Positions 29,529 through 48,590 of a stretch of DNA of 64,000 bases are shown piece by piece. Position numbers and translations under genes: made by a program. Each line of letters starts with the position of its first letter. The stretch's first letter is position 1. The notes under the pieces are model-generated. The model worked only from the letters and a program-made list of their open reading frames with translations, did not search any database and was not told the DNA's origin. Source of the DNA: a phage; assembly GCA_014437165.1 (NCBI GenBank), contig GCA_014437165.1_4090.3; one strand, 5' to 3'.

Positions 29529-29587
29529 TTGCAAAGTATTGGGAAAGGTGTAGAATGTTTTACATCGAGACGGGGGAGACGCTCCCG
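29529..29587 (+). promoter_or_regulatory. promoter + leader-hairpin cassette
   Basis: TTGCAA 29529-29534, 16 nt, TAGAAT 29551-29556; hairpin CGGGGGAG-ACG-CTCCCG 29571-29587. Confidence 0.6.
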
Positions 29588-29613
29588 ACTCACTTTTAAA
29601 AGAGATTAAAACG

Positions 29614-29976
29614 ATGGCTACTAAAATCAATACTATCATGCTTAACCTGGTTTCTTTCCGTGAAGAGATGAAAGATCTTCCCGCTGAGACTGTACGGATT
29701 CACATTGCAGCTTATCGGGAATTGATTGCAATGTTGCCGCTTAAGCGTGAACAGTACGCCGCTACTGCAATGCTGGATGCAATGATCCATAAGATGATCC
29801 AGACTGATTTAACGATGGCTTATCAGTACATGGGCGAAATGTTTGCAGTGTATAGCAAGCCAGTACCAGGAATGGAAAGTACAGAAGTATTGCACGGCTT
29901 AAACTTAAAACAAGATGCATGGGATAATATGCCTCGTTTCCTGGTATGGGCTGACAGTGGCAAGATTTACGAATAA
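29614..29976 (+). CDS. hypothetical protein (small early-type gene)
   Basis: ATG 29614 after cassette; 120 aa. Confidence 0.65.
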   Translation: MATKINTIMLNLVSFREEMKDLPAETVRIHIAAYRELIAMLPLKREQYAATAMLDAMIHKMIQTDLTMAYQYMGEMFAVYSKPVPGMESTEVLHGLNLKQDAWDNMPRFLVWADSGKIYE

Positions 29977-29990
29977 GTTTAATAAAGTAC

Positions 29991-30049
29991 TTGCAAACTA
30001 AGTTTAAAAGCGTATAATACTTTACATCAGGTGGGGAATAGTTCCCCAC
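29991..30049 (+). promoter_or_regulatory. promoter + leader-hairpin cassette
   Basis: TTGCAA 29991-29996, 16 nt, TATAAT 30013-30018; hairpin GTGGGGAA-TAG-TTCCCCAC 30031-30049. Confidence 0.7.
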
Positions 30050-30070
30050 TATAATTAAGAGGATTTAAAA

Positions 30071-30310
30071 ATGGCTAAATCAAAAATGTTCTTAGGACAC
30101 AAAAACAAAACTCAATGGAATGTAAGCCTTTGGATTAATAACGACGAATCATTATACCGGTTGGCCCAGGACTTTATTGCCGCTAACACTAATCGTAATG
30201 ATGCGGCCCGTCATATGATGCTATTTTTAGAACAGACTGGACAAGATAAAACACCGGACGGCTTTAAGTATAGCACTACTGCGATCCGTGCGGCGATGGT
30301 TGGAATGTAA
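30071..30310 (+). CDS. hypothetical protein; paralog of 32471-32710
   Basis: RBS AAGAGGA; HKNKTQWNVSLWINNDESLYR..TPDGFKYSTTAIRAAMVGM shared with 32471 product. Confidence 0.7.
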   Translation: MAKSKMFLGHKNKTQWNVSLWINNDESLYRLAQDFIAANTNRNDAARHMMLFLEQTGQDKTPDGFKYSTTAIRAAMVGM

Positions 30311-30324
30311 GAGAATAGATTAAA

Positions 30325-30356
30325 AGTACTATTGCACGGTGATAGTACTTTATAAT
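30325..30356 (+). promoter_or_regulatory. inverted-repeat operator-like site adjoining a TATAAT box
   Basis: AGTACTAT-n10-ATAGTACT then TATAAT 30351-30356; nearest TTGCAC gives only a 13-nt spacer, so promoter geometry is atypical. Confidence 0.4.
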
Positions 30357-30392
30357 AGATTTCTTTTATACAACAACGATAGGGGTAACAGC

Positions 30393-30659
30393 ATGAATAT
30401 TATATACTTTGCAACGCGTGAACTTGCTCGGATTGCCGCACGCCAGGACGGGGCGACGTTTAAAGATATGGGCGTACAATCTGAACGTGGTAAACGTTGG
30501 GCCGTAGTAAAGCAAAGTACAGCCCGATCAATTCAGTACTGGCTATCTGCTTTAAAGCGTCCTGATAGTGTATCGCGTCGCGTGGTAGAAATAAAGCACG
30601 ACCGCAAGGGCAACCGCGTTACTGTGTACAGTACTAAAAAGATAGCAGTACTTGAATAA
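30393..30659 (+). CDS. hypothetical protein; paralog of 42872-43267
   Basis: Internal ATG 30393 (MNIIYFATRELARIAARQDG..); ends ..HDRKGNRVTVYS like 42872 product. Confidence 0.6.
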   Translation: MNIIYFATRELARIAARQDGATFKDMGVQSERGKRWAVVKQSTARSIQYWLSALKRPDSVSRRVVEIKHDRKGNRVTVYSTKKIAVLE

Positions 30660-30665
30660 AAGTAC

Positions 30666-30724
30666 TTGCAAAGTAAGTTAAAAGGCGTATAATACTTTCT
30701 ATCAGGTGGGGAAGTATTCCCCAC
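30666..30724 (+). promoter_or_regulatory. promoter + leader-hairpin cassette
   Basis: TTGCAA 30666-30671, 16 nt, TATAAT 30688-30693; hairpin GTGGGGAA-GTA-TTCCCCAC 30706-30724. Confidence 0.7.
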
Positions 30725-30743
30725 CACATAAGAGGATTTAAAA

Positions 30744-30974
30744 ATGACTATCATGTATATGACCGAAGTTAAAACTGTAAAAGATACTACCACTGATAAA
30801 ACTACTTACTTACAGCGGATCTGTGGTGTATGGCAACGTATCAGTAAAGCAAAGTACTATAAATTAACATCATATGCCAATCGTTCGGATTCATTCAGTA
30901 CTGAAATAAAAGGTAATAAAGTACACCAATACGGCACTTATTACTATTATAGCCTGGACGCGATTGCAGTCTAA
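30744..30974 (+). CDS. hypothetical protein
   Basis: RBS AAGAGGA; 76 aa. Confidence 0.65.
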   Translation: MTIMYMTEVKTVKDTTTDKTTYLQRICGVWQRISKAKYYKLTSYANRSDSFSTEIKGNKVHQYGTYYYYSLDAIAV

Positions 30975-31006
30975 GCAGTTTTTGAAAATATTTACAATTG
31001 CCGGTA

Positions 31007-31035
31007 TTGACTTATTTTGTCAGTACTGGCATAAT
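31007..31035 (+). promoter_or_regulatory. sigma70-like promoter reading into a non-coding repeat-rich stretch (possible sRNA)
   Basis: TTGACT 31007-31012, 17 nt, CATAAT 31030-31035; downstream GCCCACGGGGTGCGGGAGTGTATCTA and TGCACCCGGTGGGTTAG motifs, no credible ORF. Confidence 0.45.
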
Positions 31036-31223
31036 GTATCTATTGAAACGAACAATTTGGCCCACGGGGTGCGGGAGTGTATCTATAGAAAAAGTAGTTT
31101 AGTACAGTTACAATTGTGCACCCGGTGGGTTAGCTGTTGTCATGGGGTATATTATACCAGTACTGGATAGTGCTGTCAATACCTTTTTACTATTCAGTAC
31201 TTAAAACTATTTTCAAAAAGTAC

Positions 31224-46896: not shown

Positions 46897-46907
46897 AAGT
46901 TTTATTT

Positions 46908-46946
46908 CAGTACTATTGACATAGCTTGATAGTACTGATGTAATAA
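46908..46946 (+). promoter_or_regulatory. promoter embedded in a palindromic operator-like site
   Basis: CAGTACTAT 46908-46916 / ATAGTACTG 46929-46937; TTGACA 46916-46921; -10-like TGTAAT. Confidence 0.55.
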
Positions 46947-46972
46947 CTTTACTAACTACAAGGGGAAACATA

Positions 46973-47230
46973 ATGGAACAGTTCACACAATATCGGGTAA
47001 ATCCTCAAGCTATGGCCTACGTAGAAGACCATAAAACGTTACCAGTACTAACACCAATTAAAGGCCATATCTATCGTGCAATGTCATGGAATACGGCCCA
47101 GGATGGATATACTACCGCTGGCGTGGGTATGTATTGCGGGAATGGTGAATGGTTTGATCCAAATAATCCGGTAGCCATTGACAGTACTGAAAAAATGAAA
47201 TGGGCCGACTACATCGAAGATATTTCATAA
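46973..47230 (+). CDS. hypothetical protein
   Basis: RBS AAGGGGAAA; 85 aa. Confidence 0.6.
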   Translation: MEQFTQYRVNPQAMAYVEDHKTLPVLTPIKGHIYRAMSWNTAQDGYTTAGVGMYCGNGEWFDPNNPVAIDSTEKMKWADYIEDIS

Positions 47231-47236
47231 AACTAT

Positions 47237-47297
47237 TTGACAGTACTAACCAGTAATGTATAATGTTTTACATAGAGCGGGGGAATAGTTCTCCCGC
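47237..47297 (+). promoter_or_regulatory. promoter + leader-hairpin cassette
   Basis: TTGACA 47237-47242, 16 nt, TATAAT 47259-47264; hairpin GCGGGGGAA-TAG-TTCTCCCGC 47277-47297. Confidence 0.7.
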
Positions 47298-47319
47298 CAA
47301 TAGTTTGGAGTAAAACATT

Positions 47320-47520
47320 ATGTCTATCGCTATCGCCCTGGTTGAAGTACTGAAAGAAGCTAAAGCCAACCAGATCGACGTAAAGATCCAGGAACTACAA
47401 AACGGCTTAATCGGCTGTACTTGTACCGCTGGTGGAGCGGCAGACTATCGAGAACACGAATCACTCGAATCACTGGTTCGGTATCTTACCATGATCGTTG
47501 ATGATTGGAGAATCATCTAA
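47320..47520 (+). CDS. hypothetical protein
   Basis: RBS TGGAG; 66 aa. Confidence 0.6.
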   Translation: MSIAIALVEVLKEAKANQIDVKIQELQNGLIGCTCTAGGAADYREHESLESLVRYLTMIVDDWRII

Positions 47521-47538
47521 CAAAAAAGAATAAAAAAA

Positions 47539-47563
47539 GGAGTTGACTTCGGTCCGCTCCTTT
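47539..47563 (+). terminator. terminator-like hairpin / degenerate PeSL-like cassette
   Basis: GGAGTTGAC-TTCG-GTCCGCTCC (one mismatch) + TTT. Confidence 0.5.
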
Positions 47564-47684
47564 AGTACTATATACGCATAGACAAAAACTAGCCCACAGG
47601 GTGCATAGGTGTATCTAAAATATATAGTTAATAACGGTGAGTAACTATCTGCTGGTGGAACTAAAACTATTAATAAAAAAAGTA

Positions 47685-47713
47685 TTGACAAAGTATATCA
47701 GTACTGCGATAAT
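47685..47713 (+). promoter_or_regulatory. sigma70-like promoter
   Basis: TTGACA 47685-47690, 17 nt (AGTACTG), GATAAT 47708-47713. Confidence 0.6.
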
Positions 47714-47766
47714 GTATCTCGTAGGGCGGCAATGGTGCGACGGCCCACAAAGTTAGGAGATTCAAA

Positions 47767-48099
47767 ATGAGTACTTCAATCGCTATCGTTAAAGCTTTCA
47801 TCCGTACCAATGTTTCATCTGTATTCATCGACGGTCTGGATCGGGAAGTAGAATACTCAATCATTATCGCACAGACTGCAAACGGTGCTCGGTATATCCT
47901 TAATGATAGTGAAGCAAATCACTACTACTTCACTAAAGCTACTGGCTTTAAACGCATCGATGCTGACGTAGTATACGCTAAGATGAATAAGCTGGTAGAC
48001 AAGATTAACGCGAAAGGTACTATCGATTTACAGTACTGGACCGAAACCGATCCAGAATATGGATCTCACCGCTACCTGAATCCAGGTATTAAAATGTAA
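47767..48099 (+). CDS. hypothetical protein
   Basis: RBS TAGGAGA; 110 aa. Confidence 0.65.
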   Translation: MSTSIAIVKAFIRTNVSSVFIDGLDREVEYSIIIAQTANGARYILNDSEANHYYFTKATGFKRIDADVVYAKMNKLVDKINAKGTIDLQYWTETDPEYGSHRYLNPGIKM

Positions 48100-48106
48100 A
48101 AAGTAC

Positions 48107-48168
48107 TTGCATAGTACTTAGAATCAAGTATAATGTTTTACATAGAGAGGGGGAAATGGTTCTCCCTC
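48107..48168 (+). promoter_or_regulatory. promoter + leader-hairpin cassette
   Basis: TTGCAT 48107-48112, 16 nt, TATAAT 48129-48134; hairpin GAGGGGGAA-ATGG-TTCTCCCTC ~48147-48168. Confidence 0.7.
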
Positions 48169-48188
48169 CTAAATTAAGGAGTTTTATC

Positions 48189-48590
48189 ATGACCTTCTCA
48201 ATCAATTCCTTCGCTGACGTTTTAGTACTGGCTCGGACTTTTGGTAAAGATGCACTGGAGTACGCTGTAAGTAATGGTACTATCCAACCGGAACAGTGCC
48301 GCATCATTGGAAACTGCAAACGTTGGGCGGTATCCAATACTATTGCACTGGAAAACTTCCACGATGGCAACAATGAATATTCTGTTGATGTAGTATTCGA
48401 AGCCGTTGATCTCGGCGGTATCTATAATACTAACCTGAATGATGTGCGTATCGTTCGCACGGGGTTCGGTGCTTATGATGTATCTATTCGTGAAGCTATG
48501 AACACCGGATACATTAGCAAGGACTTACTTGCTCACATCATGCAGCTGTGTACGGAACGTAACGAAGCACGCACTATCTTAGGACTGTAA
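48189..48590 (+). CDS. hypothetical protein
   Basis: ATG 48189 (MTFSINSF..) after AAGGAG; 133 aa. Confidence 0.65.
   Translation: MTFSINSFADVLVLARTFGKDALEYAVSNGTIQPEQCRIIGNCKRWAVSNTIALENFHDGNNEYSVDVVFEAVDLGGIYNTNLNDVRIVRTGFGAYDVSIREAMNTGYISKDLLAHIMQLCTERNEARTILGL

Follow-up and report, generated by a model that had tools for sequence, protein, structure and literature searches.

Promoter and leader-hairpin cassettes in the terminal repeat of an Asteriusvirus-type jumbo phage

Positions 29,529 to 48,590 of a 64,000-nucleotide stretch of phage DNA (GenBank assembly GCA_014437165.1, contig GCA_014437165.1_4090.3; the whole stretch is called the window here) hold an array of small genes headed by a repeated cassette of ~85 bp. 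The cassette consists of an A/T-rich UP-like tract, a near-consensus sigma70 promoter, the conserved initial sequence TTTACAT, a Shine-Dalgarno sequence (SD), and an ATG, and in many copies a G/C-rich hairpin sits between TTTACAT and the SD. These cassettes are real and essentially confined to the direct terminal repeat (DTR) of the phage. The explanation that best fits the findings as a whole, held with moderate confidence, is that the region is probably an early (pre-early or host-takeover-type) gene block in the ~21-kb DTR of an Asteriusvirus jumbo phage.

By megablast, the region matched Asteriusvirus genomes (PBECO4/121Q-type coliphages of ~350 kb, within the Rak2-like group) at 90 to 98% identity. 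No relative reached a coverage of 80% or more of the 19-kb region, which identifies the block as highly mosaic. The best match, vB_Ec-M-J (OQ718158), is annotated with a DTR spanning its positions 1 to 21,525, and blastn placed these two ends at window positions 27,924 and ~49,020; the module at 29,529 to 48,590 thus makes up the coding portion of the DTR. In relatives, no coding sequence is annotated in the first 1.3 to 1.7 kb of the repeat.

27924-49020, + strand: DTR, holding the entire module (blastn to the annotated DTR of vB_Ec-M-J, OQ718158)
27924-29528, no strand assigned: noncoding leading end of the DTR, rich in CAGTACTG motifs; also an iteron-like array, the promoter 28288, and a single small noncoding unit on the minus strand

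A DTR of ~21 kb has been confirmed by PhageTerm and restriction mapping for fEgEco12 (PMC13070987) and predicted by PhageTerm for Sharanji (PMC11895373). Of the 105 DTR genes of PA5oct, a relative within the clade, many show high early transcription, two abundant and highly transcribed noncoding RNAs map to the DTR, and the phage depends on host RNA polymerase, with promoters of the form TTGAC/TATAATA (PMC7318152). By analogy with the PA5oct RNA-seq data, and from the sigma70 consensus in the region, transcription would probably be carried out first by unmodified host RNA polymerase. An earlier note on this DNA had described the module as host-takeover-like and early, a description now well supported, if indirectly, by its location in the DTR, by early DTR transcription and reliance on host polymerase in PA5oct, and by gene content.

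A promoter scan returned 99 promoter-like sites, compared to 64.6 +/- 7.4 in shuffles, and 14 plus-strand sites were perfect 12/12 sigma70 promoters. Between 29.5 and 48.2 kb, the plus strand carried about 43 near-consensus sigma70 promoter units. The 25 nucleotides upstream of the −35 element averaged 78.7% A+T (61.7% region-wide), in line with the A/T-rich upstream tract noted earlier and resembling UP elements. One promoter class reads AAAAAGTAC-TTGCAW-16-TATAAT, with an A-tract that presumably fits the proximal UP-element subsite, and a conserved sequence, N-TTTT-A-C-A-T, follows TATAAT. The density of strong promoters is thus confirmed, but the earlier view that nearly every small gene has its own does not hold as worded: some genes lack one (for example, those at 40901-41309 and 43857-44772), and nine units drive a noncoding element instead of a gene. 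The proposed TG extension via AGTACTG held only for promoters with a 17-bp spacer of the form AGTACTGG-CATAAT; in AGTACTG-TATAAT, the TG abuts the hexamer, which is not the canonical arrangement.

Hairpins of the type GGGGA(G)AA-loop-TTC(T)CCCC followed 24 promoters, with 4 further variants, or about 60% of units. The earlier note had placed one at each unit; 24 (plus 4 variants) of ~43 have it, whereas ten strong promoters have unstructured leaders (31341, 36013, 38522, 38792, 39906, 41563, 41903, 42799, 43581, and 46916) and others drive noncoding elements. The hairpin-bearing cassettes are listed below from promoter start to ATG.

29529-29616, + strand: cassette with promoter TTGCAA-16-TAGAAT; hairpin 29571-29587, SD, ATG 29614
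29991-30073, + strand: cassette; hairpin 30030-30050 (GGTGGGGAA/TTCCCCACT), ATG 30071
30666-30746, + strand: cassette; hairpin 30705-30725, ATG 30744
32025-32108, + strand: cassette; hairpin 32065-32085, ATG 32106
32387-32473, + strand: cassette; hairpin 32427-32449, ATG 32471
33282-33362, + strand: cassette; hairpin 33322-33341, ATG 33360
33750-33831, + strand: cassette; hairpin 33791-33808, ATG 33829
34071-34152, + strand: cassette; imperfect hairpin ~34110-34131 (stem perfect in the EC22.5-2 orthologue), ATG 34150
35383-35468, + strand: cassette; hairpin ~35423-35444 (two G·U pairs), ATG 35466
35703-35783, + strand: cassette; hairpin 35743-35762, ATG 35781
37175-37255, + strand: cassette; hairpin 37215-37234, ATG 37253
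37773-37854, + strand: cassette; hairpin 37814-37832, ATG 37852
38209-38291, + strand: cassette; hairpin 38249-38268, ATG 38289
40323-40400, + strand: cassette; hairpin 40362-40380, ATG 40398
40594-40673, + strand: cassette; hairpin 40634-40653, ATG 40671
42099-42183, + strand: cassette; hairpin 42139-42157, ATG 42181
42367-42455, + strand: cassette; hairpin 42409-42427, ATG 42453
44914-44996, + strand: cassette; hairpin 44955-44974, ATG 44994
45219-45301, + strand: cassette; hairpin 45259-45277, ATG 45299
45713-45796, + strand: cassette; hairpin 45753-45771, ATG 45794
46262-46343, + strand: cassette; hairpin 46302-46322, ATG 46341
46597-46674, + strand: cassette; hairpin 46635-46653 (GGGGGAG/CTCCCCC), ATG 46672
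47237-47322, + strand: cassette; hairpin 47277-47297, ATG 47320
48107-48191, + strand: cassette; hairpin 48147-48168, ATG 48189
3154-3231, + strand: sole cassette of the hairpin type outside the DTR; hairpin 3191-3211, ATG 3229

Stems were 7 to 10 bp long, closing loops of about 3 to 6 nucleotides (mostly 3 to 5), with minimum free energies (MFE) of −8 to −16.6 kcal/mol. In 37 of 42 distinct hairpins, the stem began 10 to 14 nucleotides after the −10 element, close to the 10 to 15 nucleotides estimated in the earlier note; in the 24 cassettes of the module, the SD and ATG come next. Complementarity exceeded shuffled controls: the mean z score of the MFE was −2.3 against dinucleotide shuffles and was negative for 24 of 25 hairpins. 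A hairpin was present at 24 of 49 promoter-like sites, compared to 4.35% of all DTR positions and 0.4 to 1.5% of positions outside the DTR. To avoid selecting leaders by their hairpins, a second set was chosen by promoter sequence from six Asteriusvirus sequences; when the first 40 nucleotides of each leader were folded, as the note had suggested, 68 of 71 distinct leaders reached −8 kcal/mol or better, compared to 16.9% of random DTR 40-mers. All 18 AAAGTAC-TTGCAW promoters had a structured leader, compared to 8 to 10 of 20 TTGACA promoters. In the complete genome of EC22.5-2 (351,992 bp), 26 of 27 promoter-plus-hairpin cassettes fell in the DTR equivalent, all on the plus (coding) strand and none on the minus strand, and the lone non-DTR copy at 349,492 is the counterpart of the cassette at window position 3154. 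Similar G/C hairpins also stand between genes at 32730-32749 (GGCGGGGA-TTGG-TTCCCGCC, then TTTAC and an SD) and at 43290-43308 (with a T-run); neither has a promoter, so the stem-loop can occur apart from it.

Sequence change among related hairpins distinguished structure from sequence. The hairpins were aligned with loops normalized for length, as a whole-cassette MAFFT alignment held no single pairing register across loops of 3 to 5 nucleotides. Among 42 distinct hairpins, all nine pairs covaried, with 85 double-change cells compared to 22.8 in shuffles; this set was picked by a hairpin finder and carries an ascertainment caveat, which is why the promoter-defined set was added. Read in the mRNA sense, internal non-Watson-Crick pairs were G·U in nine cases and A·C in one. 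In orthologous cassettes from five genomes, substitution rates were 2.8% in the promoter, 3.2% in the stem, 6.4% after the hairpin, 8.7% in the 5' tail, and 12.9% in the loop, so that stems changed at one-fourth the rate of loops. Distinct stem changes in orthologues comprised 9 that kept pairing via G·U, 3 compensatory doubles, and 8 breaks (3 of them A·C). A single genome held at least ten different stems, with loops of 3 to 6 nucleotides.

The position of the hairpin was kept across genera while its sequence was not. The annotated terminal repeats of RaK2 and Muenster, two phages of Klebsiella, show this layout with other stems (GGGGATACA/TGTATCCCT, GGGAATGAA/TTCATTCCC, GGAGATTCCA/TGGAATCTCC, and GGGGCAA/TTGCCCC), and a Phapecoctavirus stem at the equivalent place reads GGCGGCA/TGCCGCC. 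Loops that vary freely, stems under constraint, and wobble pairing in the mRNA sense are better explained by structured RNA than by a protein site of defined sequence or an operator in duplex DNA. As judged from these substitution patterns, the hairpin was shown to be maintained by selection for its structure, and RNA in the mRNA sense is the form that fits most consistently. The earlier note had offered protection of the 5' end as a candidate role, and a structural role at the RNA level is backed by the G·U bias, by the better conservation of stems than of loops, and by the differing stems at the same position in other genera.

Cassettes also marked the places where related genomes differ in gene content. 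Compared to four relatives, 41 of 71 internal homology endpoints fell within promoter-to-ATG units, which make up 19% of the region (13.5 expected; p = 5e-13), and they clustered just 5' of the −35 element, just past the −10 element, and at the 3' arm or SD. As shown by these alignments, gene gain, loss, and replacement between relatives break preferentially inside cassettes. The suggestion of a recombination linker permitting modular shuffling thus gains support from breakpoint clustering, for the cassette as a whole. Promoter and leader halves recombine independently. The cassettes at 38209 and 40594 have identical hairpins (stem and loop) and promoters and leaders that are 87 to 88% identical, followed by unrelated open reading frames (ORFs). 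The near-identical copies grouped in the earlier note (38209/40594; 41903/42099/42367/45219/45713; 41447/44914/48107) agree in their promoter halves (0.76 to 0.98 identity), but within a group the leaders often bear no relation to one another: 41903 lacks the hairpin, and the leader of 41447 is long and of a different kind. Repeated tens of times, the cassette would supply homology for recombination that shuffles small genes, as has been proposed for the promoter-early stem-loops (PeSLs) of T4-like phages.

What the hairpin would do depends on where transcripts begin. Start sites commonly lie at position 7 or 8 after the −10 element, at a purine following a pyrimidine. Host RNA polymerase is thus predicted to start at an A 8 nucleotides (or 6 nucleotides) after the −10 element, and each mRNA would begin with ~5 unpaired nucleotides and then the hairpin; with a start at the 8th nucleotide, the modal predicted tail is 5 nucleotides (range, 0 to 6). 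The hairpin is therefore near the 5' end, but not at its very end as first described. A 5' stem-loop is said to stabilize the E. coli ompA mRNA (Emory, Bouvet, and Belasco, in 1992) and, reportedly, the T7 gene 10 mRNA (Mertens et al., in 1996).

The most likely role for the hairpin, with the chances for and against about equal, would be that of a 5'-proximal mRNA stabilizer or insulator that hinders RppH/RNase E 5'-end-dependent decay, in a cassette that would also provide recombination homology. With few terminators between cassettes, the hairpin would also flank each cistron on its 5' side once read-through RNA is processed, and protection would cover both primary and read-through-processed transcripts. 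The hairpin would in addition lock its own pyrimidine-rich and SD-like arms, leaving the downstream ribosome-binding site (RBS) open for any plugged-in ORF; in folding predictions, the SD window scored 0.72 unpaired when the hairpin was intact and 0.51 after removal of the 5' arm.

Several observations weigh against a stabilizing or insulating hairpin or against parts of the evidence for it. The predicted tail of ~5 nucleotides is at or beyond the limit of ompA-type stabilizers, for which protection is reported to be lost with more than about 2 to 4 unpaired nucleotides, and this is the main weakness. The hairpin is not required for expression, because ten equally strong promoters in the block lack it. 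Opening of the SD is not specific (0.56 with a shuffled arm, compared to 0.51). The G·U counts are low, and with so many paralogous copies, the events are not independent. Since the hairpin is tightly tied to one promoter lineage, AAAGTAC-TTGCAW, part of its prevalence could be hitch-hiking, and selection against disrupted genes also predicts breakpoints at gene boundaries. Our literature search found no start-site data for Asteriusvirus, Rak2, or Phapecoctavirus.

Three further roles were considered and rejected. The hairpin does not have the form of an intrinsic terminator; no U-tract follows the stems, which run instead into ACTAAC, GGTAAT, or similar sequence, and a terminator scan flagged only the hairpin at 29571 among the 24. 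An anti-SD switch, in which the 3' arm pairs with the SD once the 5' arm is lost, would account for the drop in SD accessibility, but the result with the shuffled arm indicates no specific complementarity. An AUG in the loop is unlikely to act as the start of a mini-ORF, as it is not conserved (loops include TAG, TGG, CGG, GTA, ATGG, ACGG, and ATGA) and its frame relative to the gene varies; such an AUG misled the ORF finder in five cassettes.

A regulatory target was another role raised in the earlier note. The hairpin or its palindrome could be the binding site of a phage or host factor (an RNA-binding translational repressor, a nuclease, or a DNA-binding repressor) that coordinately shuts off or protects the early class. 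At about +6 to +28, it lies where operators typically do, the cassettes are class specific and DTR confined, and nearly all copies, Klebsiella phages included, share a G-rich base, GGG...CCC. However, with ten or more stems per genome, loops free in length and sequence, and the high loop substitution rate, a sequence-specific target is disfavored because stems and loops vary; the spacing of GGG to CCC differs between genera, and the G·U bias speaks against a site in duplex DNA. Some 5' arms and loops resemble the T4 RegB consensus GGAGRAYAR (GGAGAAUAG in 45219 and 45713; PMC3014915), but tblastn of T4 RegB found no homologue in the complete EC22.5-2 genome (best E = 6.9) or in the window (best E values across the two, 2.6 to 6.9), and a RegB-type GGAG cleavage target was rejected. 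Overall, a factor-binding site is unlikely.

Equally unlikely is that the hairpin lacks an RNA function of its own and belongs to a selfish or duplicative promoter-leader cassette that matters only as DNA, through homology or a recombination-stimulating cruciform. The enrichment of breakpoints in cassettes, the independent recombination of promoter and leader halves, and the strict linkage of the hairpin to the AAAGTAC-TTGCAW lineage all fit such an element, as do the recombination junctions mapped in or near the stem-loops of PeSLs (PMC2839356) and a gene shared with a Phapecoctavirus whose homology (88% nucleotide identity) is bounded exactly by the ORF, at 30071-30310. Yet stems are four times as well conserved as loops and surpass the flanks too, stem changes either compensate or form G·U in the mRNA sense, and unrelated stems occur at the equivalent position in other genera, a combination that points to selection on pairing in the transcript and not only on sequence identity between copies.

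Less probable still is a classical PeSL function, in which the stem-loop would terminate or attenuate transcription from upstream cassettes so that each gene depends mainly on its own promoter. Stem-loops in RB49 and phi1 are of the G(n)-loop-C(n) type, and one is an efficient terminator in vivo (PMC2839356). At 37633, 41321, and 44784, the window also has genuine composites of terminator and promoter, their hairpins of the form AAAGGG..TTGAC..CCCTTT, and few other terminators lie between cassettes. Against this, the leader hairpin is downstream of its own predicted start, so as a terminator it would stop its own transcript too, and the missing U-tract and the single hairpin of 24 flagged by the scan count likewise against it. 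Very improbable, finally, is that the G-rich 5' arm was selected as an initial transcribed sequence easing escape from very strong promoters, with the C-rich arm merely neutralizing an SD-like G-tract: the initial transcribed sequence is purine rich (AUCAAGGGGAGAAAUGG, which we take to resemble that of T5 N25) and the 5' arm contains GGAG or GAGG, but the initial sequences of ten hairpin-less consensus promoters in the block are pyrimidine rich or mixed, and Klebsiella-phage stems such as GGGGATACA and GGAGATTCCA are not uniformly purine rich.

Promoter units without the leader hairpin fall into several kinds. One example of a short, unstructured leader is at 41903, where the promoter is identical to those at 42099 and 42367. 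Long leaders of ~85 nucleotides at 31224 and 41447 form two hairpins (GGACGGGGAA...CCCCGUU...GUCC, then AGGAG...CUCC), are driven by a class-I promoter, and run into the next consensus promoter; the related long leader at 34547 is followed by a gene. Nine promoter units, six on the plus strand and three on the minus strand, drive a conserved small noncoding element in place of a gene.

41903-41963, + strand: hairpin-less unit (example), short unstructured leader
31224-31340, + strand: promoter plus long two-hairpin noncoding leader, with promoter 31341 directly after; paralogue 41447-41562, variant 34547-34697
37633-37772, + strand: composite terminator/promoter plus small noncoding element; a UUCG-loop hairpin carries the −35 element TTGACT, then TATTAT
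About 31007-31090, 37633-37772, 39315-39430, 41321-41446, 44784-44913, and 47538-47625, + strand: small noncoding units
About 33715-33625, 31179-31095, and 29080-28990, − strand: small noncoding units

Each small noncoding unit has a sigma70 promoter, often within a terminator hairpin with a UUCG or UCCG loop, and an element core of RCCC-AYN-GGGUGC...GUAUCUAU, in which the invariant RCCC-AYN-GGGUGC lies 21 to 29 nucleotides after the −10 element. A variable short hairpin precedes the core (GACG/CGTC, AGTC/GACT, TGAG/CTCA, GGC/GCC, and others). In one complete genome, all 8 copies were in the DTR, and the unit is also kept in RaK2 and Muenster, two phages of Klebsiella; no other DNA is as well conserved between the DTRs (72 to 80%). 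RNAalifold recovered only an invariant 4-bp hairpin without covariation, and the element had no Rfam match; inspection by eye and single-sequence folds suggested a 5' hairpin and a long-range 5'-AUAGA/UCUAU-3' pairing. The element is a candidate small RNA or nut-like family. Composite terminator-promoters also precede ordinary genes outside the DTR, at 420-445, 4915-4944, 6199-6224, and 7612-7639 (AAAAGGGTTGAC-TTCG-GTCAGCCCTTTT, then GC-TATAAT); there the −35 element lies within a UUCG-tetraloop terminator stem, like the A3G3-loop-C3T3 PeSLs of phage nt-1.

The module encodes about 51 small ORFs, most of which belong to PHROGs of unknown function. Only two products were clearly recognizable, and a third is kinase-like by a weak match.

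39642-39899, + strand: DksA/TraR C4 zinc finger protein (recognizable protein; relatives' annotations)
39963-40319, + strand: GNAT acetyltransferase (recognizable protein; relatives' annotations)

Other features of the window were recorded in passing. The palindrome AGTACT (flank consensus, C-AGTACT-G) occurred 257 times window-wide, compared to 21.6 expected (12-fold), was densest between 24,000 and 48,000, and was by far the most enriched palindromic hexamer. It was enriched 7.7-fold over an entire Asteriusvirus genome, 17-fold in RaK2, and 21-fold in the DTR of Muenster, compared to 0.4- to 0.5-fold in a Phapecoctavirus and T4. Half of the sites were in coding sequence, in all three codon phases, and the palindrome forms part of promoters (AAAGTACT-TGCAA; AGTACTG-TATAAT), terminator-like hairpins, and Klebsiella-phage leader hairpins; a literature search found nothing on AGTACT in jumbo phages. 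Six other 6-bp palindromes (CGATCG, CCATGG, AGGCCT, AGCGCT, CCCGGG, and CCGCGG) were absent window-wide, with 2 to 6.5 of each expected, which is consistent with restriction-site avoidance. An iteron-like array of ~12 copies of AGATGGCT(R)/AGACGGCTAA at 28,684-28,830, in the noncoding first 1.6 kb of the terminal repeat, adjoins ~20 CAGTACTG motifs and may be a replication, packaging, or terminus-recognition signal. Just past the DTR, from 49,600-51,900 onward, are runs of ORFs of ~65 to 85 amino acids with overlapping stop and start codons and almost no promoters; they resemble paralogous arrays, and similar runs occur in ph0011, 121Q, and vB_Ec-M-J. Across the whole window, Rfam gave no matches at the gathering threshold and only two chance-level ones (E ≤ 1) in the DTR, and ARAGORN detected no tRNA or tmRNA.

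A broader proposal, which we regard as distinctly unlikely, combines several of these elements. On this view, the terminal repeat may serve as an early expression platform complete in itself, in which a 5'-proximal G/C hairpin of any sequence would be a structural "self" mark, exempting phage early mRNAs from phage-induced or host 5'-end-dependent decay. Together with the small structured RNA family (RCCC-AYN-GGGUGC...GUAUCUAU, 9 copies per DTR, in E. coli and Klebsiella jumbo phages) and the clade-specific palindrome CAGTACTG (8 to 21 times enriched, in promoters), it would form an undescribed regulatory layer in Rak2-like phages. A hairpin that did act as a mark of stability or "self" would account for the survival of early phage mRNAs under host mRNA turnover.

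Rak2-like jumbo phages are isolated in large numbers for therapy, while their early regulation is wholly uncharacterized, as are ~80% of their genes. The DTR appears to be an array of ~45 plug-in expression cassettes and as such provides a map of the genes that are probably expressed first, with candidate host-takeover and anti-defense functions among them. The cassettes also represent compact natural promoter, 5' untranslated region (UTR), and RBS parts for synthetic biology.

Early gene blocks in terminal repeats are known from the host-takeover module of SPO1 and the pre-early region of T5. As in these phages and PA5oct, dozens of small genes, mostly of unknown function, are gathered in a long terminal repeat under strong host-type promoters; the Asteriusvirus module has no sequence relationship to those of SPO1 and T5, its temporal class is only inferred, and a repeated leader hairpin is not described in the SPO1, T5, or PA5oct modules. 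At the level of the transcript, the ompA 5' UTR and the T7 gene 10 leader (GGGAGACCACAACGGUUUCCC) are similarly arranged: both belong to efficiently translated mRNAs and place a G/C-rich hairpin near the 5' end, with an A-rich spacer and then the SD behind it, and the arms of the T7 gene 10 hairpin are similar in composition (GGGAGA.../...UUUCCC). Those stems lie 0 to 4 nucleotides from the 5' end, whereas ~5 unpaired nucleotides are predicted here, where the stabilizing role is itself a prediction.

Within the Rak2-like clade, CBB has 18 listed RpoD-like promoters with an UP-like element in its presumed early region (PMC5259590). It shares the promoter type and an early region reaching into the terminal repeat, but neither a leader hairpin nor a cassette structure was reported there, and we found no mention of either in the papers on RaK2, phAPEC6, fEgEco12, and Sharanji.

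The closest known system is that of the PeSLs, described in the T4-like phages RB49/phi1, PST/T4, and nt-1/KVP40 (Arbiol et al. 2010, PMC2839356; Comeau et al. 2014, PMC4122927). There too, near-consensus sigma70 early promoters with an AT-rich upstream tract are combined with a G(n)-loop-C(n) stem-loop and end in an SD and ATG at the 3' end; the repeats precede small genes of unknown function in hyperplastic regions and are tied to breakpoints of indels and replacements. The window even has the A3G3-loop-C3T3 type overlapping the −35 element, as in nt-1. PeSL stem-loops, however, precede the start site (they lie between or over the −35 and −10 elements or just ahead of +1) and act as terminators, a position and property shared here only by this second element type (37633, 41321, and 44784), whereas the main stem-loop lies in the transcript, 10 to 14 nucleotides past the −10 element, and has no U-tract. 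The host of the array also differs, being a Rak2-like jumbo phage that carries it in a 21-kb terminal repeat. By these likenesses of layout, the cassettes are best described as a variant of the T4-like PeSL type with a transcribed stem-loop, which would take the idea of gene shuffling via cassettes beyond the T4-like phages, to one whose stem-loop belongs to the mRNA.

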